A stretch of DNA of 64,000 bases, taken from the NCBI GenBank assembly GCA_034435835.1, contig DAOTWF010000030.1:69069-133068 (forward strand), read 5' to 3'. The DNA is from Dehalococcoidia bacterium (lineage in GTDB: Bacteria; Chloroflexota; Dehalococcoidia; GIF9; UBA5629). The position numbers were made by a program, and so were the translations under genes. Positions 283 to 10,570 of this stretch are shown here, in pieces. The number at the start of each line of letters is the position of its first letter. The stretch's first letter is position 1. Below the pieces are notes generated by a model, which saw only the letters and a list, made by a program, of their open reading frames with translations, had not been told where the DNA came from and searched no databases.

Positions 283-2763
283 CTAGGACCAGGCCGGTAT
301 TAATTTACCATCAGGGCTCTGCCAGACAGGCACCCATACCAAAGCGACCAAGCGGACGGAAATATCCTTCTTAGCCGGTCTGATAACCACCGTCTCAAGT
401 TCCTCGGCTAGTGGGTCAATCTTGGCTTGCAGCTCCTGCATCTCCGCCCTGAACTCATCCTCCAGCTCTCCCAGCCGTTGCTGGTAGGTTGCCAGCGTCT
501 CTCTAGCACGCCCAACATCCTGCGCTTCTTTCATTATGCGCCCGGCGCTGCGCACAGTAGTAGCACCCCTGCTCAGCGAGGAGTAGCTCAGTGCCTTCCT
601 GCCCATGAAAGCGCTGAGCAAGGTGGCTCCCGCCGAAACAGCCGTCTGCATCTTTTGCTGCCTTGCCTGCTCCACCTCCCTCTCCACCGCCTGCTGGGCA
701 CGCCGTACCTTTTCTTCCAGCGCAGCCACCTTGGCAGCATATTTCTGCTTCGCTTTCTCAATCGCCTCATCACGCTGCTCCCGAAAGCTCTGCTGCAGCC
801 GTACCCTGAAATCGCGCTCCGACTCTCCCGGCTTGGAAAACGCCTTAAACGTCGGACTCTTTAGCAGTTCCAGCTTTCGGTTCCGGTAAAGCCAGTCGGC
901 AAATTCCCTAACCCAGGCATCGTAGCTCCTGGGATTGCTGGCAGCCGAAGGTAGCAGAGCAAAAGCCGCCGGCTCGCTTGGCGACTTTTCCAGATCGGCG
1001 ATGTTGAACGGGGCTTCGTTTGCCCTGTTCCAGTCCACAGGGATGGGATCATCGGTTATTGGTGTAATATGTGAAGACTCCTCCATCAGATCAATCCCGC
1101 TTTTTGCGTCCAGAAAGTGCACCTGGGCATGCCCAACAAGCATCGGGGAATATACCAGGGTATGCCCTGCCGGCTTACTGCCACGAATGGGAACAAAATA
1201 CTGGGGGACGCTCGGCGGTAACACCGGCCTGCCGCTGGAACGGGAGGGCTCGGCTCCAGGCTGTACCGGCGGCATCGCCGGCGCCGTGGGCACGGCTGTG
1301 GATACCGCTGGTTGCGGCGCCGTCTGAGCTGTAAGCACCGCAGTGCGCAGCGGGTCCATAAGCTTCTTTATCTGGACACGGGTGATCGGTCCCCGGAGGT
1401 AGGACATCGCCCACCGGGTCTCAAAGATTACCGGCGCGTCCTCGTGCACATTGTTCATCAGAAATATGCGGTTGCTCAAGCCAGCCAGAGTCTGCTCCAT
1501 TGCCTGTCTGTCGAACTTCGTACCCGCCGTAGCAGCCACACCCTCAAGCCCCTCCAGCACCCGCATCTTATCGCGCTCGGTCTGCAGCCGCCCTACGAAC
1601 CAGGTACCGGTATTCGCCAGTCCTTTGTAGTCGAGGTCAACGGGGTTCTGTGTAGCAAGCAGTATGCCCACGCCGAAAGCGCGCGCTTGCTTGAGCAGGG
1701 TCAGCAAGGGTAGTTTAGAGGGCGGGTTGGCAACGGGCGGGAAGTAGCCAAAAATCTCGTCCATGTAAACTATAGCCCGGAGGCTGGTGGTTCCCGATTG
1801 AGATCGCGTCCAGGCAAGCACTTGATTGAGCAACAACGAGACGAAGAACATCCGCTCGGAATCGTTCAGGTGGGCTATGGAAAAGATGGCTACACGTGGC
1901 TTGCCGTTCGGGGAGTAGAGTATCTGACCGATGTCCAGTGGCTCACCCTGAAGCCAGATATCGAACCCCGGCGCCGCCAGCAAATTGTTCAGCAACAGCG
2001 CCAGCGCAAACCTGTCCTTCGCAGGGTAGAAAGACTCCAGGTCCAGCGCGCCGACCCTGTTCACAGGCGGTGACTGTATCTGCTGTATCAGCATCCCCAG
2101 GTCCATATCCCTCCCCTCGCGCCACGCTATGTCGAGTATTGTGGAGATGAGTATGTGTTCCCGGCTGCGGATAGGGTCAGCCTCTTTCCCCACCAGCCCA
2201 AGCAGGCTAGTGGCTGTGGATACGATGCGTTCCCTGAGTAGTTCAGTGTCTTCCCTTATAGCCGGGGGTGGGGCAGCAAACGATTTCAGAATGGACACCG
2301 GTATCCCGGCGGTGCTTCCCGGCGTGTATATCACAAAGTCGGCAGCCTCCTTGAGCCTGGCAATGCGCTCACCGCTCTGCCCCCACGATGCCAGCCCGTT
2401 TCGCCACACCTCTGCCTGCTTCTTGGCATATTCCTCTACGGTCAGCCCCTTCTTGCGGGCATCGTCCTCGTTCACCCAGGGGAGAAAGTTATCTGGCTTT
2501 AGCTCCGGGAATGCGAGCAGCAGATTGGGCAAATCGCCCTTCGGATCGATGGCTATGGACGGAATCCCGTCCATAGCCGCCTCTTCAAGCAACACTATGC
2601 ACAGGCCCGTTTTGCCGCTGCCGGTCATACCCACGCAGACACCGTGGGTTACCAGGTCCTTAGAATCGTAGAGGAGCAGCTCACCTGTAGATTTCTTGGC
2701 AGCAAGGTCGTAGGTCTTCCCCAGATAGAAAACACCCAGCCTCTCATAATCTTCCATACTCAC
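283..2763 (-). CDS. HerA/FtsK-superfamily P-loop NTPase (DUF87/DUF853-like) with a Pro-rich linker and a C-terminal coiled-coil region
   Basis: 826-aa ORF. Walker A is GMTGSGKTG, a Walker B-like stretch is IVYMDEIF, and LLATQNPVDLD is typical of HerA/VirB4-type ATPases. A Pro/Ala-rich linker (TAPQPAVSTAVPTAPAMPPVQPG) and a charged heptad-like tail (EEKVRRAQQAVEREVEQARQQ) follow. Confidence 0.6.
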   Translation of the reverse strand: MSMEDYERLGVFYLGKTYDLAAKKSTGELLLYDSKDLVTHGVCVGMTGSGKTGLCIVLLEEAAMDGIPSIAIDPKGDLPNLLLAFPELKPDNFLPWVNEDDARKKGLTVEEYAKKQAEVWRNGLASWGQSGERIARLKEAADFVIYTPGSTAGIPVSILKSFAAPPPAIREDTELLRERIVSTATSLLGLVGKEADPIRSREHILISTILDIAWREGRDMDLGMLIQQIQSPPVNRVGALDLESFYPAKDRFALALLLNNLLAAPGFDIWLQGEPLDIGQILYSPNGKPRVAIFSIAHLNDSERMFFVSLLLNQVLAWTRSQSGTTSLRAIVYMDEIFGYFPPVANPPSKLPLLTLLKQARAFGVGILLATQNPVDLDYKGLANTGTWFVGRLQTERDKMRVLEGLEGVAATAGTKFDRQAMEQTLAGLSNRIFLMNNVHEDAPVIFETRWAMSYLRGPITRVQIKKLMDPLRTAVLTAQTAPQPAVSTAVPTAPAMPPVQPGAEPSRSSGRPVLPPSVPQYFVPIRGSKPAGHTLVYSPMLVGHAQVHFLDAKSGIDLMEESSHITPITDDPIPVDWNRANEAPFNIADLEKSPSEPAAFALLPSAASNPRSYDAWVREFADWLYRNRKLELLKSPTFKAFSKPGESERDFRVRLQQSFREQRDEAIEKAKQKYAAKVAALEEKVRRAQQAVEREVEQARQQKMQTAVSAGATLLSAFMGRKALSYSSLSRGATTVRSAGRIMKEAQDVGRARETLATYQQRLGELEDEFRAEMQELQAKIDPLAEELETVVIRPAKKDISVRLVALVWVPVWQSPDGKLIPAWS

Positions 2764-2838: not shown

Positions 2839-2955
2839 TCATTTCCGTCAGAAGATACGTCGGGATGCACCGGAGACAAAGCTTCATACAGAAGTAAGGG
2901 CCCCTAGCAGAAAAGGGGCTAGTGGCTGTTCTCTACAGCCCGCGGAGATAGGCAT

Positions 2956-3206
2956 CTATGGAAGTTGCAGCCCGCCCACCCACATCCTGTCCTTGGTGGT
3001 CTTGCCGGTCACCTCGTCAGCCACCACGGGGTTATCGTCCCTTTCTGTGCCCCAGCCAGCGATAGTGAGCGGTATGCGCTCACCGACCTCATCCACGCGG
3101 ATGACTACAAACTGCTTTGCCTGGCTTTCTTTACTATGGCTGGAGCCTCGAATTCGAAATAGTTGATCACCGGGCAAAGTTTCTCTTTAGCCACTATTTT
3201 GTACAC
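2956..3206 (-). pseudogene. Frameshifted and truncated remnant of an NfnA/SudB-like (PyrK-type FAD/[2Fe-2S]) subunit gene
   Basis: From GTG (3204..3206, GAGG RBS upstream) frame A gives VYKIVAKEKLCPVINYFEFEAPAIVKKARQSSL*. A shifted frame continues AKQFVVIRVDEVGERIPLTIAGWGTERDDNPVVADEVTGKTTKD. Together these match the N-terminal ~70 aa of NfnA/sulfide dehydrogenase small subunit (consensus as recalled: FKIL.KE.LAP.I..FEIEAP.IAKKAKPGQFV.IR..E.GERIPLTIAD...G.I..V.QEVGKTT). The frameshift lies near 3110..3120. Homology ends after GKTTKD and a stop follows at 2956, so about 200 aa are missing. Confidence 0.55.
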
Positions 3207-3220
3207 GGTGAGACCTCGTT

Positions 3221-5410
3221 CTAGACAGTTTTGACTCTAACCGGTGGCAGCACCGGACGGGAAAGCTCGAGCCTGGCATCGCAGCGCAAACAGCGCCTGG
3301 CTTCCGCCCTGGCAGTCATTTCATCGTAGCCTCGCTCCACCTCAGCAAAGCCAGCCAGACGTTTATCCAGGCTGATGCTGGGCATCTCGGGACGCCGCCT
3401 GTCAGCGAAGCCCTCCTCGCTGCCAAAATACGGGTCCGCCTTCTCAAATGGTACCAGCACCTCTTCGATGATGCCGCTCCCACCCAGATATCTATCAATC
3501 GAGCTTGCCGCCTGCCTCCCCTGAGCAATAGCCTCTATCACCGATGCCGGCCCCAGTACCACATCACCACCGGCAAACACACCCTCTATATTGGTCGCCA
3601 GAGTTCTTGTATCCACCTTTATCACATCCCCACGCCCGACCTCCACACCAAACCCCCTAGGAATCTCAGACACCTGCCCGATGCTCGCTATGACGTTGTC
3701 AAACTCCATGACAAACTTGCTACCCTTAATGGGCACCGGCCGGCGCCTGCCGCTGGCATCAGGCTCGCCCAGCTCCATCCTGATGCACTCCAGCTCAAGA
3801 TTGCCATTTTTGACGGCTACCTTTGAAGGTGCTGCCAGGAAGATAATCTCCACCCCCTCGTGCAGAGCTTCCTCCACTTCCTCAGGCGCTGCCGGCATCT
3901 CAGCACGGGTGCGCCGGTAGATAATCGTTACCTCTTTGGCACCAAGACGTAATGCCGTGCGTGAGCAGTCTATAGCTGCATTGCCACCACCTATAACCGC
4001 TATCCTCTCGCCTATCTTCACTGGCTCCCCCAGACTGACCTGCCGCAGGAAAGTGACACCGTCCATAACACCCGCGCTGTCCTCGCCCTCAATACCCAAC
4101 TTCGTCCCCCGATGAGCACCCAGAGCCAGAAACACCGCCTGGTAACCATCCCCAAACAGCCCATCCAGGGACTCCACCCTGGCGTTCGTCCTTATCTCCA
4201 CGCCCACACTCGCAATCTCCTTGATTTCAGCATCAAGAATAGCGCGCGGCAGACGGTAAGCAGGGATACCCACTCGCATCATGCCACCGGGCTGCGGCAG
4301 TGCCTCGAACACCGTAACCTTGTGCCCCAGTTTAGCTAGATAAAAGGCTGCCGTCAGCCCCGCCGGTCCCGAACCGACCACCGCCACCTTCTTCCCGGTC
4401 GGCGGTGCTACTTTAGAATACTGTTTCCACAAACCTCCGTCATTATCAGCAGCAAACCGTTTGAGGAATTTGATGCATATCGGGTCATTGAGCACACCCC
4501 GCCGACACGCCTGCTCACAGGGATGTATACATACCCTCCCCAGAACACCAGGGAAGGGCACTTTCTCTCGTATCACCGCCAGCGCCTCAGAATATTTCCC
4601 CTGCGCAATCAAATAAATGTACCGCGGTATATCAATATGCGCCGGACAGGCATCCCGACAAGGGACAACATAAGCCTCCCAGTTGGGAATATCACGGAAG
4701 CGCGCTTCTCTGTCAATAAGAGCACCGGTGGGACAGACCTCAACACAGCTGAAACAGAACTTGCAGCCCGATTCTTTATGGTCATCGTTCTTCTTAGGCC
4801 CCGCAACCTTATAACCATTCACCTCCACAAAATCAAGCGCCTTTATCCCACGAAGATCATTGCAAGCACTTATACAACGACCACACAAAATGCACAAATT
4901 GTAGTCTAAGTCAAAAAAGGGATTGTCGCGATTTATCGGTAAAAAACGGTACTCGTATAGGATGTCTTGCATCCTGATATCAAAAAAGTCAGACACCAGT
5001 TGTAGCTCACAGCGTCCGTTTTTGGGACAGGTGACACAACGCTCGGTGACGGAGACGCTGCGCAGGCAGATATCGAACGGTTTGCAGCGCTCCCTCCGCC
5101 AGCAGGTAAGGCAGGCGCTGGGATGCTGTGATAGCAGCCTGACCAAAGCCTGACGCTGCCTCTGGCGCAGCTCCGGAGTATCCGTGCGCACGACCATGCC
5201 TTCGTAAACCCTGGTAGTACAGGACAGAACCGGTTCACCCTGCCCCTCGATTTCCACCAGACACAGCCCGCAGTTACCCGAAGGCGGTAGGTCGGGGTGA
5301 GCACAAAGGCTAGGGATGTAGATGCCGGCATCCGTCGCTGCCTGAAATATCGTCATGCCGGCTGAAACGCTGGCCTCACGCCCGTCAATGGTGATGGAGA
5401 ACTCACCCAT
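3221..5410 (-). CDS. Fusion protein: NuoG/HydA-type N-terminal Fe-S domain ([2Fe-2S] plus [4Fe-4S] clusters) joined to a GltD/NfnB-like NAD(P)H:FAD oxidoreductase; putative FDH-associated diaphorase subunit
   Basis: 729 aa. The N-terminus (ITIDGREASVSAGMTIFQAATDAGIYIPSLCAHPDL...CGLCLVEIEG) is paralogous to the FdhA N-terminus. CILCGRCISAC and CKFCFSCVEVCPTGAL are ferredoxin motifs. Then come GltD-type motifs: VPCRDACPAHIDIPRYI, VAVVGSGPAGLTAAFYL (FAD) and IAVIGGGNAAIDCSRTA (NAD(P)H). It starts 4 nt after the fdhA stop. Confidence 0.8.
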   Translation of the reverse strand: MGEFSITIDGREASVSAGMTIFQAATDAGIYIPSLCAHPDLPPSGNCGLCLVEIEGQGEPVLSCTTRVYEGMVVRTDTPELRQRQRQALVRLLSQHPSACLTCWRRERCKPFDICLRSVSVTERCVTCPKNGRCELQLVSDFFDIRMQDILYEYRFLPINRDNPFFDLDYNLCILCGRCISACNDLRGIKALDFVEVNGYKVAGPKKNDDHKESGCKFCFSCVEVCPTGALIDREARFRDIPNWEAYVVPCRDACPAHIDIPRYIYLIAQGKYSEALAVIREKVPFPGVLGRVCIHPCEQACRRGVLNDPICIKFLKRFAADNDGGLWKQYSKVAPPTGKKVAVVGSGPAGLTAAFYLAKLGHKVTVFEALPQPGGMMRVGIPAYRLPRAILDAEIKEIASVGVEIRTNARVESLDGLFGDGYQAVFLALGAHRGTKLGIEGEDSAGVMDGVTFLRQVSLGEPVKIGERIAVIGGGNAAIDCSRTALRLGAKEVTIIYRRTRAEMPAAPEEVEEALHEGVEIIFLAAPSKVAVKNGNLELECIRMELGEPDASGRRRPVPIKGSKFVMEFDNVIASIGQVSEIPRGFGVEVGRGDVIKVDTRTLATNIEGVFAGGDVVLGPASVIEAIAQGRQAASSIDRYLGGSGIIEEVLVPFEKADPYFGSEEGFADRRRPEMPSISLDKRLAGFAEVERGYDEMTARAEARRCLRCDARLELSRPVLPPVRVKTV

Positions 5411-5414
5411 CGGA

Positions 5415-8108
5415 TTAAAGCTTTTCTACCCTGACCGCAGACACCTTGAGTTCTGGAGTCTTGGATACCGGGTCAAAGGCGGTGTTGGTCAAAACATTCA
5501 CCGGGCTCTCGACAAAGTGAAACGTCATATAGACGACCCCGGGTGGCACTCTCTCTGTAACCTTAGCCTTTACCATAACCTCGCCGCGCCTAGATACTAC
5601 CTTCACTCTTTCGCCGTCCTCAATCTTGAGGTCTCTAGCGTCCCTTGGGTTTATCTCCACTGCAGCCTCAGGGTCAATGGCATTCAGCCCGCGCACCCGG
5701 CGCGTCATGGTGCCGGTGTGGTAATGAAAGAGACTGCGTCCGGTGGTGAGTATAAACGGATAGTCCTTGTCCGGCAACTCTGCCGGTGGCTTGTACTCCA
5801 GCGGTGTGAACAGCCCCAGCCCGCGGACAAACCTGCCCACATGCAGTATAGGGGTACCGGGATGGTCTGTGTTCGGACAGGGCCACTGAAGCCCACCGTT
5901 CTCCAGCCGCTCATAATTGATGCCACCGTAGCTGGGCGTCAGCCTGGCTATCTCGTCCATAACCTCCGAGGGATGGTTATAATCAAAACCCTGAGCGCCC
6001 ATTCGTTTTGCTATTTCACAAATGATCCACCAGTCCGGCTTGGAATTGCCCACAGGCTCGATTGCTTTCCTCACCCGTTGCACGCGGCGCTCGGTGTTGG
6101 TGAAGGTACCGTCCTTTTCGGCAAAGCTGGCAGCCGGCAGCACAACATGTGCCAATTGCGCCGTCTCGGTGAGGAACATATCCTGCACTACCAGGAACTC
6201 CAGCCTCTTGAATGCCTCCCTGGTATGGTTGATATCGGGGTCGCTGAGCAGCGGGTTCTCGCCCATGACGAAGGCCGCCTTGAGGCGCCTGTTATAGGCA
6301 GCATCGATCATCTCGCTGAGGGTCAGCCCTGGATTGGGGTTGAGATCGCAACGCCAGGCGATCTCAAACTTGTGGCGTATCTCCGGGTTGTCCACCCTTT
6401 GGTAACCGGTGTAGACGTTAGGCAGGGCACCCATATCGCAGGCACCCTGTACATTGTTCTGCCCACGCAGCGGGTTAACGCCAGAAGAGGGCTTCCCGAT
6501 GTTCCCAGTAAGCATCGCCAAGTTGGCTATCGCCAGCACATTGTCAGTGCCGTGGGTATGCTGGGTTACGCCCATGGTGTAAAGAATTGTCGCCGGCTTA
6601 AAGGTGGCGTACAATCGTGCCGCTTTAGCTATCGCCTCCCGCGGCACCCCTGTTACTTTCTCTACAAATTCCATCTCAAACTTCTTTAACGATTCCTTAA
6701 AAGAATCGAAATTTTCACAATATTCGCTAACGAAGGCTAGGTCGGCAAGCCCTTCATCGTAGATCACCTTCGCCATCCCCATAAGCAAGGCAACATCGCT
6801 ACCAGGAACGTGTCTCAGCCAGACATCGGCACGGTTACAGAGGTCTATCTCCAGAGGGTTAGCCACAATGAGCCGGGCACCATTACGTACCGCTCTTTTG
6901 ACCTCCAGAGCTATAACCGGATGTGTGGCACTGGTATTACTGCCGATGACTAACACGCAAGCTGCATTGCCGATCTCGTTAATAGAGTTAGTCATGGCAC
7001 CGCTGCCAAAAGTGGTAGCCAGACCGGCTACCGTGGGCGCATGTCAGAGACGGGCACAGTGGTCGATATTGTTCGTCCCCATGACGGCACGGGTGAATTT
7101 CTGTGCCAGATAGTTTTCTTCGTTGGTGCACCTTGCTGAAGCGATAAAGGCAAACTCTTCACTTTTGTGCTTGCCCAGGACCTCAGCAACAAAACCCAGT
7201 GCCTCCTCCCAGCTCGTCTCCACAAGCTTGCCATCCTTCCTTATCAGCGGGTTGCTCAGACGCTCGGGGTGATGGACAAACTCGACAATGCCAAAACGTC
7301 CCTTAACACAAGCCTGTCCTTTGTTAACCGTATTCTCACCATAAACAGGTACCGAACGCACCACCCTCTCCGCTTTTACCTCCAGCCCCAACTGACAACC
7401 CACACCGCAATAAGGACATATTGTCGGCACTGTTCGGTCCGACAAGCCAAGCCATTTGCCCTCTGTGTCAAGGAGAGCACCAGTAGGACAGACATCAACG
7501 CAGGCACCACAAAACTGACAACCGGAGTTTTGCAGGGTCTTATCGAAAGCGGTCCCCACTAGCGCCTTGCTGCCCCGATAAATAAAGGCAATAGCCCCCG
7601 CACCCCTCACCTCCTGGCATACCCTTACACAACGCCCACAGAGGACACAAAGATTATAGTCACGGTCGAAAAATGGGCTGTCACGGAGAACAGGAAGCTC
7701 CTTGAGGATAGGCGGAAGAGTGACCTCCTCCACCCCAATCCGGGATGCAACCTTCTGCAGCTCGCAGCGCAGGTTCTTGGCACAGGTAACGCATTGCTTA
7801 GGATGTTCCGCCAGAATCAACTCAAATATGTTCTTCCGCAGCTCCCGAAGCTCAGGGGTGTCCGTCCTGACCACCATCCCATCGGTCACCGGCGTGGTAC
7901 AGGCAGTGGGAAAGCCACGCATATTCTCAATTTCCACAAGACAGAGACGACAGGCACCGTAGGGGCTCAGACTCGGATGATAGCAAAGCGTCGGTATGTG
8001 CACGCCAGCCTGCTTAGCTGCCTCAAGTACGGTACAGCCGTCTTTCACCTGCACCGTCCGACCATCTATGCTCACCGTCACCACTTTAGCTCTCTCTTCA
8101 ACAACCAT
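5415..8108 (-). CDS. fdhA: Formate dehydrogenase catalytic subunit (Mo/W-bis-PGD, NuoG-like N-terminal Fe-S domain), selenocysteine-containing; TGA at 7044..7046 decoded as Sec (residue 355 of 897)
   Basis: Track ORFs 7044..8108 and 5415..6995 share one frame, with 16 sense codons between the TGA and the second ORF's ATG. Read-through gives [35 protein letters not shown], the canonical FDH Sec/Cys active-site context. CPYCGVGCQLG is the [4Fe-4S] motif of the molybdopterin domain. The C-terminus (VSKTPELKVSAVRVEKL) is typical of the family. Confidence 0.9.
7014..7032 (-). promoter_or_regulatory. Bacterial SECIS hairpin (apical stem-loop) directing Sec insertion at the UGA at 7044..7046
   Basis: The mRNA reads UGA-CAUGCGCCCAC-GGUAGCC-GGUCU-GGCUACC. 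An 11-nt spacer precedes 7 perfect base pairs, and the loop contains GGUC. As I recall, the E. coli fdhF SECIS has the same spacing and loop. Confidence 0.75.
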
Positions 8109-8131
8109 GGCAGACCTCTATCCTCACTATA

Positions 8132-10057
8132 TCAATCCTGTGCACCCTTCCCCGCTTTCTGCACCGGCACCGGCTCAGAAGGAACCTCAATGCGCTCACC
8201 AGACACCTTCGCCACCGCCGAAAAGCGCGCCGGACACACATCCAGACAGGTGCCACACTTTATACATTTGTCCTGCTCTATTATGTGTACCAGCCGCTTG
8301 CCACCTTTGATAGCTTCCACCGGACAGTTGCGCATGCATATCATGCACCCCTGACATTTATCCGGTAGAATATAGAAGACTATCAGATCTTTGCACACCA
8401 GGGCCGGACAGCGTCTTTCTTTTATATGCGCCTCATATTCGCCACGGAAATAACGCAGCGTGGTCAGCACCGGGTTCGGTGCCGTCTGTCCCAGCCCGCA
8501 GAGCGACCCCTGCTTCACCGTCATGGCGATCCTCTCCAGTTGGTCAATGTCATCAGGCTTTCCCTGCCCCTCGACAATGCGCTTGAGAATGTCCAGCATC
8601 TGCCTGGTGCCCACACGACAGGGCGGGCATTTGCCGCAGGACTCCGCCTGCGTGAAGGCTAGAAAATATTTGGTCAGGTCTACCATACAGGTGTCCTCAT
8701 CAGCCACTATCATCCCACCAGACCCCATGATGGAGCCAGCCGCAGTCAGCGATTCGTAGTCCACAGGAGAATCAAGCAGCGATGCCGGTAGACAGCCACC
8801 AGAAGGACCACCAGTCTGAACCGCCTTGAACTGCTTCCCTTTGAGGATGCCACCACCAATATCGTAGATGATCTGCCGCAAGGTAATGCCCAGCGGCACC
8901 TCGATAAGACCGGTCATCTCCACCTTGCCCACCAGAGCAAAGGTCTTCGTGCCCTTGCTCCGCTCAGTACCATACTGCGCATACCAGTCGGCCCCCTTCT
9001 GCAGAATCAGAGCCGCACTAGCCCAGGTCTCCACGTTGTTGATATTCGTCGGCTTGCCCCACAGACCGGATATCGCAGGGAACGGCGGCCTGGGCCTGGG
9101 CATACCGCGCTTTCCTTCAATGGATGCCAGCAGGGCAGTCTCTTCACCACAGACAAACGCCCCAGCACCCTCTTTTATCTTTATGTGCAGGCTGAACCCA
9201 GAACCAAGAATGTCGTCCCCTATCAACCCGTACTCTTCCATCTGCTTCAGCGCCAGCCGCAGCCTTTCCAGCGCCAGGGGATACTCGGCACGACAATAGA
9301 TATAACCTCGGTTCGCCCCGATGGCATAGGCACCGATGACCATGCCCTCAAGCACTGAATGAGGATCGCCCTCCAGAAGAGAACGATTCATGAACGCCCC
9401 GGGATCACCTTCATCAGCATTACAGATAATGTATTTCTCTACCCCAGGAGCACGCCTGCAAAACTCCCACTTCTGCCCTGTGGGAAACCCTGCACCTCCT
9501 CTCCCCCGTAAACCAGACTTCTTTATCTCCTCGATGATCGCCTCAGGCGACATGCTCAGCGCCTTCACCAGCCCACTGTAGCCACCATTGGCAATATAAT
9601 GGTCGATGTTCTCCGGGTCGATAAGCCCACAGTTGCGCAGCACCAGCCTCACCTGCGGCTTGAGCACCGGAAGGTCAAAAAGGGCAGGAATGCCGTCAAC
9701 CTTGCCATCCCCTATGTAGCCAAGCGCTAAATCGGAGCGGGGATTATCGTGTACCAGATAGTCAGAGAGCAGTTGCTTTACGGTCTCCGGCTGTACACCG
9801 CCATAAATAATCTGAGGCCTGCCAGGCTTGATGATCCCAACCATCGGCTCAGCATAGCATAAGCCCATACACCCCACCTGGATCACTATGGCTTCTAAGC
9901 CGTGCTGCACCAACACCTCATCTATCGCCCTGAGCACACCATCAGCTCCAGCCGCCCTGCCACACGTGCCAGCACCCACCAGGATCCGGGGCTTGGGGCT
10001 CCCCTCTAGCTTCTCCCACTCGGCAAAAGCACGCTTCTGGATCTCAGCAAAGGTCAT
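8132..10057 (-). CDS. NuoF/HydB-like NAD(H)-binding FMN Fe-S subunit with an N-terminal thioredoxin-like [2Fe-2S] domain and C-terminal 2x[4Fe-4S]
   Basis: 641 aa. Motifs seen: GRGGAGFPTGQKWEF (FMN/NADH site), ESCGKCPPCRVG (N3 cluster), and C-terminal CQGCMICMRNCP and CIKCGTCLDVCP. The N-terminal region reads ILVGAGTCGRAAG...VGCMGLCYAEP. Confidence 0.85.
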   Translation of the reverse strand: MTFAEIQKRAFAEWEKLEGSPKPRILVGAGTCGRAAGADGVLRAIDEVLVQHGLEAIVIQVGCMGLCYAEPMVGIIKPGRPQIIYGGVQPETVKQLLSDYLVHDNPRSDLALGYIGDGKVDGIPALFDLPVLKPQVRLVLRNCGLIDPENIDHYIANGGYSGLVKALSMSPEAIIEEIKKSGLRGRGGAGFPTGQKWEFCRRAPGVEKYIICNADEGDPGAFMNRSLLEGDPHSVLEGMVIGAYAIGANRGYIYCRAEYPLALERLRLALKQMEEYGLIGDDILGSGFSLHIKIKEGAGAFVCGEETALLASIEGKRGMPRPRPPFPAISGLWGKPTNINNVETWASAALILQKGADWYAQYGTERSKGTKTFALVGKVEMTGLIEVPLGITLRQIIYDIGGGILKGKQFKAVQTGGPSGGCLPASLLDSPVDYESLTAAGSIMGSGGMIVADEDTCMVDLTKYFLAFTQAESCGKCPPCRVGTRQMLDILKRIVEGQGKPDDIDQLERIAMTVKQGSLCGLGQTAPNPVLTTLRYFRGEYEAHIKERRCPALVCKDLIVFYILPDKCQGCMICMRNCPVEAIKGGKRLVHIIEQDKCIKCGTCLDVCPARFSAVAKVSGERIEVPSEPVPVQKAGKGAQD

Positions 10058-10059
10058 CT

Positions 10060-10509
10060 TTACTTGTATCGCTCCAACATTTCTTTAGCCCCGGACACCG
10101 TCATCCTACCGTAGACATCTTTATCGACGACCACCACCGGTGCCAGAGCACAGGAACCAAAACAGGCCACCCTCTCAAGACTGAAGCGGTTGTCATCGGT
10201 TGTCCCGCCAGACTCCACCCCCAGCTCCCGCTTCATCTCATCGAAGATACGTTCACCGCCCCTGACATGGCATGCCGTCCCCAGACAGACCTTGATGTTG
10301 TGTCTGCCACGGCGGGTAAAGTAAAACTGGGCATAAAAAGAGGCGACCCCGAACACCTCGCTCTCCGATATACGGCACAACGTGGCTATCCGGGAGACCG
10401 CCTCCTCAGAAAGGTAGCCGTACTTTTCCTGTACTTTTTGCAAAATCGGAATTAACGCACCCTTCTCACCACCGTACTCTGCCACAATTTGGGCTAGTTC
10501 ATCAGACAA
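10060..10509 (-). CDS. NuoE/HydC-like [2Fe-2S] thioredoxin-fold subunit
   Basis: 149 aa with a TTG start and a GGAGAG RBS. KVCLGTACHVRG and ERVACFGSCALAPVVVVD carry the NuoE cluster cysteines. The stop lies 2 nt before the nuoF-like start. Confidence 0.85.
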   Translation of the reverse strand: MSDELAQIVAEYGGEKGALIPILQKVQEKYGYLSEEAVSRIATLCRISESEVFGVASFYAQFYFTRRGRHNIKVCLGTACHVRGGERIFDEMKRELGVESGGTTDDNRFSLERVACFGSCALAPVVVVDKDVYGRMTVSGAKEMLERYK

Positions 10510-10541
10510 CTGGCTCTCCGTGGAAAAGCAATCGGTCAGAT

Positions 10542-10570
10542 AGTTTAGCAGAACGCGGTATCTCCGTCAA
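10542..10570 (-). promoter_or_regulatory. Candidate promoter of the FDH operon (TTGACG-N17-TAAACT)
   Basis: The minus strand reads TTGACGgagataccgcgttctgcTAAACT, about 30 nt upstream of the nuoE-like TTG start. Motif match only. Confidence 0.4.

Follow-up and report, generated by a model that had tools for sequence, protein, structure and literature searches.

A selenocysteine formate dehydrogenase encoded in one gene cluster with bifurcating-type flavin and NADPH modules in a Dehalococcoidia bacterium

We analysed a stretch of 64,000 nucleotides (nt), called the window below, from a Dehalococcoidia bacterium (GenBank assembly GCA_034435835.1, contig DAOTWF010000030.1, positions 69,069 to 133,068). 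Its source is a metagenome-assembled genome (MAG) of 1.44 Mb in 35 contigs that is 88% complete. Four minus-strand genes in the window, in the order bfuC-bfuB-fdhA-fdhB, encode a NuoE-like protein, a NuoF-like protein with extra Fe-S domains, a selenocysteine (Sec) formate dehydrogenase (FDH) and a fusion of a NuoG-type Fe-S domain to a GltD-type module, with intergenic gaps of 2, 23 and 4 nt (Table 1). These coordinates and gaps reproduce exactly those of a first-pass annotation made from the letters alone, and its assignments of the four products agree with our domain profile searches against Pfam and NCBIfam. It also proposed coupling of the FDH to two modules, one for NAD(H)/ferredoxin and one for NADP(H), and this is the reading that the comparative evidence supports best.

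The four genes appear to share one transcription unit. The site TTGACG-17-TAAACT is the sole intergenic promoter-like match of our consensus scan upstream of the unit, in keeping with the single candidate promoter proposed before, and the hairpin at 2919-2900 is the sole intergenic terminator-like match downstream. Promoter- and terminator-like matches inside genes occur about as frequently as in shuffled sequence, and the same scan found no separate promoter-like site in the 4-nt gap between fdhA and fdhB. The candidate promoter sits in a 98-nt gap after an upstream P-type ATPase gene on the same strand, and transcription may read through from this gene into bfuC.

Table 1. Features of the FDH gene cluster, in window coordinates
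Feature	Position	Strand	Basis
Candidate sigma-70-type promoter TTGACG, 17 nt spacer, TG-TAAACT	10542..10570	-	consensus scan; consensus match only
bfuC / nuoE-like gene, 149 amino acids (aa)	10060..10509	-	TTG start, GGAGAG 4 nt before start
bfuB / nuoF-like gene, 641 aa	8132..10057	-	open reading frame (ORF), Pfam
fdhA, 897 aa (one in-frame TGA read as Sec)	5415..8108	-	ORF, TIGR01591
In-frame TGA read as selenocysteine, residue 355	7044..7046	-	ORF translation
Selenocysteine insertion sequence (SECIS)-like hairpin GGTAGCC-GGTCT-GGCTACC	7014..7032	-	ViennaRNA fold, 60 nt from TGA
fdhB-like gene, 729 aa	3221..5410	-	ORF, Pfam, NCBIfam
nfnAB remnant, ~235 nt	2972..3206	-	sequence and blastn against L001, L002 and L004
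Terminator-like hairpin, probable 3' end of the transcription unit	2900..2919	-	consensus scan; weak T-tract

The first two genes encode a flavin module that resembles those of electron-bifurcating enzymes. The NuoE domain 2Fe-2S_thioredx (PF01257) covers the full length of BfuC (E 2e-50), a thioredoxin-like [2Fe-2S] protein (C1 cluster) whose best solved relatives are the C subunit of NiFe-Bfu (7t2r_C), HydC and NfnC. BfuB has a NuoF-type core for FMN, NADH and a [4Fe-4S] cluster (Pfam domains Complex1_51K, SLBB and NADH_4Fe-4S), preceded by ~145 extra N-terminal residues with a thioredoxin-like domain and followed by a C-terminal 2x[4Fe-4S] ferredoxin domain. Among proteins of solved structure it comes nearest to the B subunits of A. 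mobile NiFe-Bfu (7t2r_B), T. sibiricus Nfn-Bfu (9n5u_B), C. saccharolyticus NfnABC (9bov_B) and S. ovata Stn (8oh5_B), with 832-763 bits over residues 24-618, against 374-444 bits for the non-bifurcating FdsB. In a residue-level alignment its CNADEGDPGAF motif is identical to that of the NAD-using StnB, and both C-terminal CxxCxxCxxxCP motifs (B3/B4) are kept; the N-terminal domain has three Cys, like the B subunits of Stn and Nfn.

NuoE and NuoF homologues occur in non-bifurcating enzymes too (PMC11829005). The extra N- and C-terminal Fe-S sites separate the bifurcating from the non-bifurcating NuoF homologues, and deletion of B3/B4 abolished bifurcation in HydABC (PMC9304861, PMC11829005). 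Because BfuB has retained both its N-terminal domain and the dicluster arm at its C-terminus, neither of which is present in the non-bifurcating FdsB and NuoF, we classify the 641-aa protein by its sequence as a BfuB of the bifurcating type. The cluster thus shows the sequence features of the Bfu family, i.e. the extra domains of BfuB, a NuoE-like BfuC gene adjoining bfuB at a distance of 2 nt, and a BfuA with a NuoG-type N-terminus.

The part of BfuA would be taken by FdhA, which is apparently an active Sec formate dehydrogenase. It scores 869 bits against the NCBIfam model TIGR01591 (Fdh-alpha, cut-off 666), and its NuoG-type N-terminus (Fer2_4, NADH-G_4Fe-4S_3, Fer4_Nqo3) is followed by the pterin domains. 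The protein aligns over its full length to FdsA (6tg9_A, 9wxb_B), whose N-terminus contacts the NuoF- and NuoE-like subunits in the solved structures. The active site reads CARL-U-HAPT (Sec355-His356), and a SECIS-like hairpin with a 7-bp stem and a GGUCU loop begins 11 nt past the TGA; the Sec-FdhA of the first reading is thereby upheld. Since BfuB and BfuC are Bfu-like and FdhA aligns end to end with FdsA, we assign BfuC-BfuB-FdhA, as predicted proteins, to the type-1 Fdh-Bfu of Schut et al. 2022 (PMC9304861). No tRNA-Sec was found in the MAG by aragorn, and selB gives a partial match only, at a contig end; as the MAG is 88% complete, we do not count this against Sec decoding. We found no intact cytoplasmic FDH in the MAG other than the FdhA described here.

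The fourth protein, FdhB, joins two modules. Residues 1-245 (Pfam Fer2_4, NADH-G_4Fe-4S_3 and a Fer4 dicluster) hold the sites for a NuoG-type [2Fe-2S] cluster, a His-ligated [4Fe-4S] cluster, an extra Cys4 motif and 2x[4Fe-4S], and they share 42% identity over 234 aa with the N-terminus of FdhA, so that the paralogy noted before is borne out. The GltD/NfnB-type NAD(P)H-FAD module is likewise found, as Fer4_20 and Pyr_redox_2 over residues 249-631; the whole 2x[4Fe-4S]/FAD/NADPH module spans 250-713 and its tail ends in RC707LRC710D. FdhB scores under the cut-off of every NCBIfam equivalog. All 29 of its Cys are kept in >=99% of 120 homologues (identity >=63%), the mean column identity is 77% and every cluster and nucleotide motif is intact, a pattern that points to strong purifying selection. 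The motif H96xxxC100xxC103xxxxxC109 is complete, and because of the extra Cys4 set beside it (C115/C125/C128/C134) FdhB is likely to bind one additional cluster compared with the matching part of StnC.

The best solved relatives of FdhB are the large subunits of the Nfn-Bfu and Stn enzymes (9bov_A with 553 bits, 8oh5_C with 503 bits and 9n5u_A with 491 bits). The alignment of FdhB to StnC falls into three permuted pieces: residues 1-100 of FdhB ([2Fe-2S] to HxxxC) match 1-100 of StnC, 250-713 (the entire GltD module) match 103-568, and 133-249 (the dicluster domain) match 573-690. The alignment to the Csac NfnA is likewise in three pieces. On this basis StnC comprises the same domain set as FdhB, with GltD inserted after residue ~100, and an FdhF-like domain follows. 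Both proteins have the NADPH-type motif GGGNAA...YRRT, and K170 and R239 of StnC correspond to K317 and R386 of FdhB, which are invariant in alignment A1; C114 of StnC is not kept (Ile261 in FdhB).

By these comparisons the closest characterised system is Stn/NfnABC (Nfn-Bfu), known from S. ovata (StnABC, 8oh5), C. saccharolyticus (NfnABC, 9bov) and T. sibiricus (9n5u). Its NuoE- and NuoF-like subunits bear the same extra Fe-S domains as BfuC and BfuB. It further has [2Fe-2S] and dicluster domains of the NuoG type, a GltD FAD/NADPH module with the same tail ending in CxxC, and NAD(H) and NADP(H) sites in one gene cluster. The first-pass annotation missed this nearest precedent, which already joins NuoE, NuoF, NuoG-like and GltD parts with both nucleotide sites. 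StnC, however, is a single chain of 1172 aa with GltD inserted after residue ~100, whereas FdhB of the window is a separate protein with GltD at its C-terminus. FdhB keeps the complete HxxxCxxCxxxxxC and the extra Cys4 and lacks the StnC junction motifs HxxxCxxxCxxxCP and CxxCxCxxxxC. The FDH of the window is a separate and apparently active Sec subunit, unlike the dead FdhF domain of StnC. Kumar et al. described StnC's C1/C2 clusters and FdhF domain as lacking catalytic activity, a leftover of evolution that no longer functions. In their structure the electron path runs FAD-C7-C6-C5-C4-C3-B1-FMN, the FAD of StnC does not bifurcate, and the Stn tetramers are held together where the FdhF-like domain and the N-terminal domain of neighbouring StnC chains touch. 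What is new with respect to Stn/NfnABC seems, judged by sequence, confined to the FDH being live and the layout being neither fused nor permuted.

Natural fusions give the strongest argument available that this GltD subfamily enters physical union with both BfuB and FdhA. In a maximum-likelihood tree the GltD module of FdhB falls in a well-supported clade (SH-like approximate likelihood ratio test, SH-aLRT, 96-97) that also holds BfuB::GltD fusions (L018, L021) and GltD-in-FdhA fusions (P0125 and the second ORF of L050). The BfuB::GltD genes adjoin FdhA and nfnAB; in their products GltD takes the place of the ferredoxin arm of BfuB, and HIKE..CPAAVC runs straight into PCxxxCP. In P0125 (1365 aa) and L050:11163-13711 (Sec) GltD interrupts the 2x[4Fe-4S] domain of FdhA around residue 176, the active site of which reads CARL(C/U)H, and this inserted module is 61% identical to that of the window FdhB. 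Because GltD is fused to BfuB beside FdhA, and to FdhA beside BfuCB, all the modules may meet in one assembly. A further gene, L019:5925-9998, encodes a protein of 1357 aa with one TGA read through (CARL-U-HAPT), a complete FDH domain and both StnC junction motifs, HxxxCxxxCxxxCP (HYGDCIAPCQLTCP) and CxxCxCxxxxC (CLECGCKASYYC); it is followed by FdhB and nfnAB and looks like a StnC with a live Sec-type FDH. A clearly closer relation of the GltD module of FdhB to StnC than to NfnB held in part only: the local NfnB is 47% identical and Stn-type modules are 46-53% identical. The distinguishing trait that FdhB has in common with StnC is a C-terminal tail of ~70 residues with CxxC, which NfnB of NfnSL lacks.

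The same genome has other clusters with fused GltD modules. At C34:24543-32318 (-) we found FdhA-like (886 aa), BfuC, BfuB::GltD (1026 aa), MetV-like (215 aa) and MetF-like (295 aa) genes. We considered this cluster as a second FDH and rejected it, as its active site reads SGSRLYSAAT with no Sec/Cys-His, and MetV/MetF-like genes follow; its FdhA-like protein looks like a dead FDH that may serve as an Fe-S wire for a methylene-tetrahydrofolate reductase. At C2:108814-116561 (-) the genes encode BfuC, BfuB::GltD (1059 aa), a NuoG-like protein (664 aa) and NiFe small-like (178 aa) and large-like (488 aa) subunits, followed by a further GltD-like gene of 596 aa. This looks like a NiFe-Bfu hydrogenase in which GltD replaces the ferredoxin arm of the B subunit. 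These uncharacterised BfuB::GltD clusters for FDH, hydrogenase and MetVF share with the window the lineage, the GltD family and the BfuC, BfuB and NuoG-type partners; there GltD replaces the C-terminal ferredoxin arm of BfuB, an arm that the BfuB of the window retains, its NADPH module being encoded by a gene of its own. A lone BfuC-BfuB pair (48% and 59% identical to those of the window) lies at C2:38001-42989, ~2 kb from the acetyl-CoA synthase gene (AcsB/CdhC).

A scan of a genome collection and a survey of 301 genomes of the class yielded 40 distinct Dehalococcoidia loci that have a full-length FdhB, and we typed their neighbours by tblastn. The order BfuC-BfuB-FdhA-FdhB occurs in seven species-level genomes (L001, L002, L004, L006, L010, L011 and L040), always followed by nfnA-nfnB and with FdhB identities of 61-87%; three truncated contigs are consistent with it. 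Contrary to the earlier view that two pyridine-nucleotide modules around one catalytic subunit are unusual, the arrangement is not rare within its lineage. Other loci have FdhA-FdhB without BfuCB (L020), or BfuC-BfuB-FdhB without FdhA, with gaps of 20-44 nt (L039, L048 and L050, and partially L041 and L049). These three-gene clusters show that FdhB can take the position of the A subunit. Two loci (L010:1729-4668 and L019:2290-5550) have a second BfuC'-BfuB' pair (39-54% identical) and a ~200-aa BfuA-like protein directly upstream of the FDH cluster. In an Acetobacterium-type relative (L030:3021-8284) the gene for an FdhB-like fusion of 711 aa precedes those for a NuoF-like protein of 381 aa, a small ferredoxin and a FAD_binding_2 reductase; the A. 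woodii homologue of this fusion is listed as split into products of 110 aa and 586/600 aa. We found no description of the four-gene layout in Dehalococcoidia in the literature that we searched, which is weak evidence of absence, as the coverage of subscription journals was thin.

The unit in the relatives has six genes, i.e. the four described here plus nfnAB, and the nfnAB pair has been deleted in this genome. The window holds no intact nfnA and nfnB (NfnAB, or NfnSL), only a remnant that begins 14 nt past fdhB, in which about the first 60 codons of nfnA (VYKIVAKEKLCPV...) are joined to the last ~45 codons of nfnB (...VVADEVTGKTTKD). Alignment to L001, L002 and L004 shows that ~1.9 kb has been cleanly deleted from the interior, and the junction lies near 3027-3029. 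At 21 related loci nfnA and nfnB are intact, the same-genus relatives keep both, and no further nfnAB was found in the MAG at its 88% completeness.

Three other known enzymes are related to parts of the cluster. The NADP-FDH of Moorella thermoacetica (FdhAB, EC 1.17.1.10; Moth_2312-2314, genes sfrB2/sfrA2/fdhF3) pairs a Sec FdhA with an Fe-S N-terminus and an Fe-S/FAD/NADPH beta subunit of the SfrB/GltD kind, whose domains are described in PMC5736913; we liken the beta subunits by names and description. Close FdhB homologues bear the Joint Genome Institute (JGI) name 'formate dehydrogenase (NADP+) beta subunit', and together with the gene name sfrB2 this is consistent, by analogy, with the earlier remark that a GltD-like beta subunit is the NADPH side of the Moorella-type FDH. 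The purified Moorella enzyme is alpha2beta2, with no NuoE/NuoF subunits reported; in contrast, the window has bfuC and bfuB packed in the same unit, a subunit set that exceeds FdhAB. Among the Fdh-Bfu enzymes, HylABC-FdhF2 of Gottschalkia acidurici is characterised and the type-1 enzyme of Carboxydothermus hydrogenoformans is predicted (PMC9304861). They share with the window a BfuBC core with a pterin FDH, formate being the third substrate for NAD+/ferredoxin bifurcation, and in type 1 the BfuA subunit is itself the FDH; the GltD/NADPH subunit of the window is an addition to the described examples. FdsABG (Rhodobacter capsulatus, 6tg9/6tga; Cupriavidus necator) structurally attests the union of a NuoG-like FDH with NuoF- and NuoE-like subunits. 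It differs in that FdsB is non-bifurcating and has none of the extra B2-B5 sites, in having no NADPH module, and in being a Cys-type Mo enzyme.

Fdh3 of Thermococcus onnurineus is an FDH coupled to NADP+, like the one proposed here. It is archaeal, has small ferredoxin-like connectors and no NuoE/NuoF module, and is coupled through a separate GltD-like flavoprotein.

We suggest, with moderate confidence, that the four genes encode one soluble FDH complex of the Bfu family (HydBC/StnAB-type) with an added NADP(H) port; its subunit stoichiometry, docking geometry, nucleotide specificities and bifurcation we infer from the sequences. In such a complex the Sec-FdhA would oxidise formate or reduce CO2 at a molybdenum or tungsten bis(pyranopterin guanine dinucleotide) (Mo/W-bisPGD) site, and its NuoG-type Fe-S N-terminus would pass electrons to the BfuB-BfuC flavobicluster (B1-FMN-C1). 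There the electron pairs would be bifurcated to NAD+ and, via the C-terminal 2x[4Fe-4S] arm of BfuB, to ferredoxin; in reverse, NADH and reduced ferredoxin would be confurcated for CO2 reduction. FdhB would dock by its own NuoG-type Fe-S domain and link the cluster network to its non-bifurcating GltD-type FAD/NADPH site, which would add formate:NADP+ (Moorella-type) and NADPH:NAD+/ferredoxin (Stn/Nfn-type) reactions. The FdhA:FdhB pair could mimic the contact between the FdhF-like and N-terminal domains in Stn. The complex resembles Stn/NfnABC in an unfused and catalytically live form. A single complex is favoured by the tight packing of the genes, their conserved order in seven genomes and the GltD fusions to both partners, and also because FdhA with an SfrB/GltD-type beta subunit has been purified as the NADP-FDH of Moorella. 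We also propose, more tentatively and as a rather doubtful extension, that the four proteins together make up one redox hub with four ports, in which a single Fe-S network would join the Sec-FDH, the bifurcating FMN site (NAD+/ferredoxin) and the GltD FAD site (NADP+), and which would be a living version of the enzyme ancestral to Stn/NfnABC.

Several observations weigh against a single complex. The most conserved neighbour of FdhB is nfnAB (21 of the 40 loci) and not FdhA. In six loci (L007, L012, L013, L022, L037 and L038) FdhB-nfnA-nfnB is found by itself, preceded by unrelated genes, and in all four of these genomes that were searched (L007, L012, L013 and L022) the FdhA orthologue is absent, the best matches being 32-34% identical. 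About a dozen FdhB genes are solitary, and distant members of the fusion family (40-46% identity) adjoin unrelated redox enzymes, i.e. NuoF fragments with FAD reductases, xanthine-dehydrogenase-type enzymes or BcrAD/HGD-D genes. The modules seem exchangeable too, because at L002:4864-7246, in the same genus, BfuCB has diverged to 62-67% identity with the window while FdhA/FdhB stay at 84-85% (L004 being compared as well), so that the flavin module of L002 seems to have been swapped for a paralogue. An AlphaFold2 model of FdhB from an alignment of 38 sequences reached a mean predicted local distance difference test (pLDDT) score of 63, with all Fe-S regions below 50, and was unfit for docking or fold search. 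Because FdhB homologues also sit with BfuCB alone, with nfnAB alone, with unrelated redox enzymes or by themselves, FdhB is best seen as an NADP(H)/Fe-S module of general use rather than as a subunit specific to FDHs. The earlier claim that the fusion belongs to the FDH therefore stands in part: its natural fusions with FdhA and BfuB speak for it, and its homologues without any FDH against it.

These observations give room to other explanations. The products might be a pool of shared subunits that form interchangeable sub-complexes, a possibility that we take seriously and still think improbable. FdhA-BfuBC would then be a type-1 bifurcating FDH, FdhB-BfuBC a Stn-like NADPH:NAD+/ferredoxin transhydrogenase that has no FDH domain, and/or FdhA-FdhB an NADP-FDH like that of Moorella. 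Each of these pairings occurs alone in relatives (L039/L048/L050; L020; the type-1 BfuC-BfuB-FdhA of PMC9304861), FdhA and FdhB both have a complete NuoG-type N-terminus, the part that contacts NuoF/NuoE, and the loss of nfnAB here would hand the transhydrogenase role to FdhB-BfuBC. On the other hand, the covalent GltD-BfuB and GltD-FdhA fusions lie in operons that hold the remaining partners, and by analogy the interface of the Stn tetramer could be reproduced by an FdhA:FdhB pair. It is unlikely, in our judgement, that FdhB works outside the FDH altogether, either with the downstream nfnAB (deleted here) or alone as an NADPH:ferredoxin-type oxidoreductase, its place after fdhA reflecting inherited synteny or co-regulation of redox-balancing genes. 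The FdhB-nfnA-nfnB trio, as the most conserved unit, and the solitary genes are what one would expect from such a role. However, fdhB follows fdhA after a mere 4 nt with no promoter-like site of its own, SfrB/GltD-type subunits have precedents of purifying with FdhA/SfrA-type partners, the same GltD subclade is fused to FdhA and BfuB, and FdhB is intact with all Cys kept although nfnAB has been destroyed. It is very unlikely that the enzyme is simply a FdsABG-type, NAD+-dependent FDH that does not bifurcate, with structural extra domains and FdhB as a decaying passenger. FdsA is indeed the best solved relative of FdhA, and NuoE/NuoF homologues have been noted above in non-bifurcating enzymes; but BfuB resembles the bifurcating B subunits far more in bit score than FdsB, it holds the B3/B4 arm essential for bifurcation in HydABC, and the conservation of FdhB is not that of a passenger.

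Downstream of the unit, a HerA-like ATPase gene (window 283-2763, minus strand) is syntenic with L001:14645-17119 at 82% nucleotide identity and has its own promoter-like site TTGACA-16-TAAACT at 2838-2811. The MAG carries the AcsB/CdhC gene; formyltetrahydrofolate synthetase (FTHFS) was not found in it at 88% completeness.

The electron donor for the conversion of CO2 to formate and the balancing of NADH, NADPH and ferredoxin are central for uncultured subsurface Dehalococcoidia with Wood-Ljungdahl genes. Given the modular Bfu concept, the design is unsurprising in principle. The operon and its fused relatives are extant candidates that hold a live counterpart of the 'remnant' FdhF branch of StnC, and they raise the questions of whether two medium-potential substrates, formate and NADPH, can be handled by a Bfu core simultaneously and how Stn arose. 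A CO2 reductase linked to NADPH and ferredoxin would, if it is active, also merit attention for making formate by biocatalysis. If the four proteins do form a four-port hub, CO2 would be reducible with NADPH, or with NADH plus reduced ferredoxin. Formate or NADPH would interchangeably drive the reduction of ferredoxin, and a separate Nfn would be dispensable, nfnAB being deleted here. The split, fused and permuted series in Dehalococcoidia would then document the origin of StnC by insertion of a domain into an active FDH.

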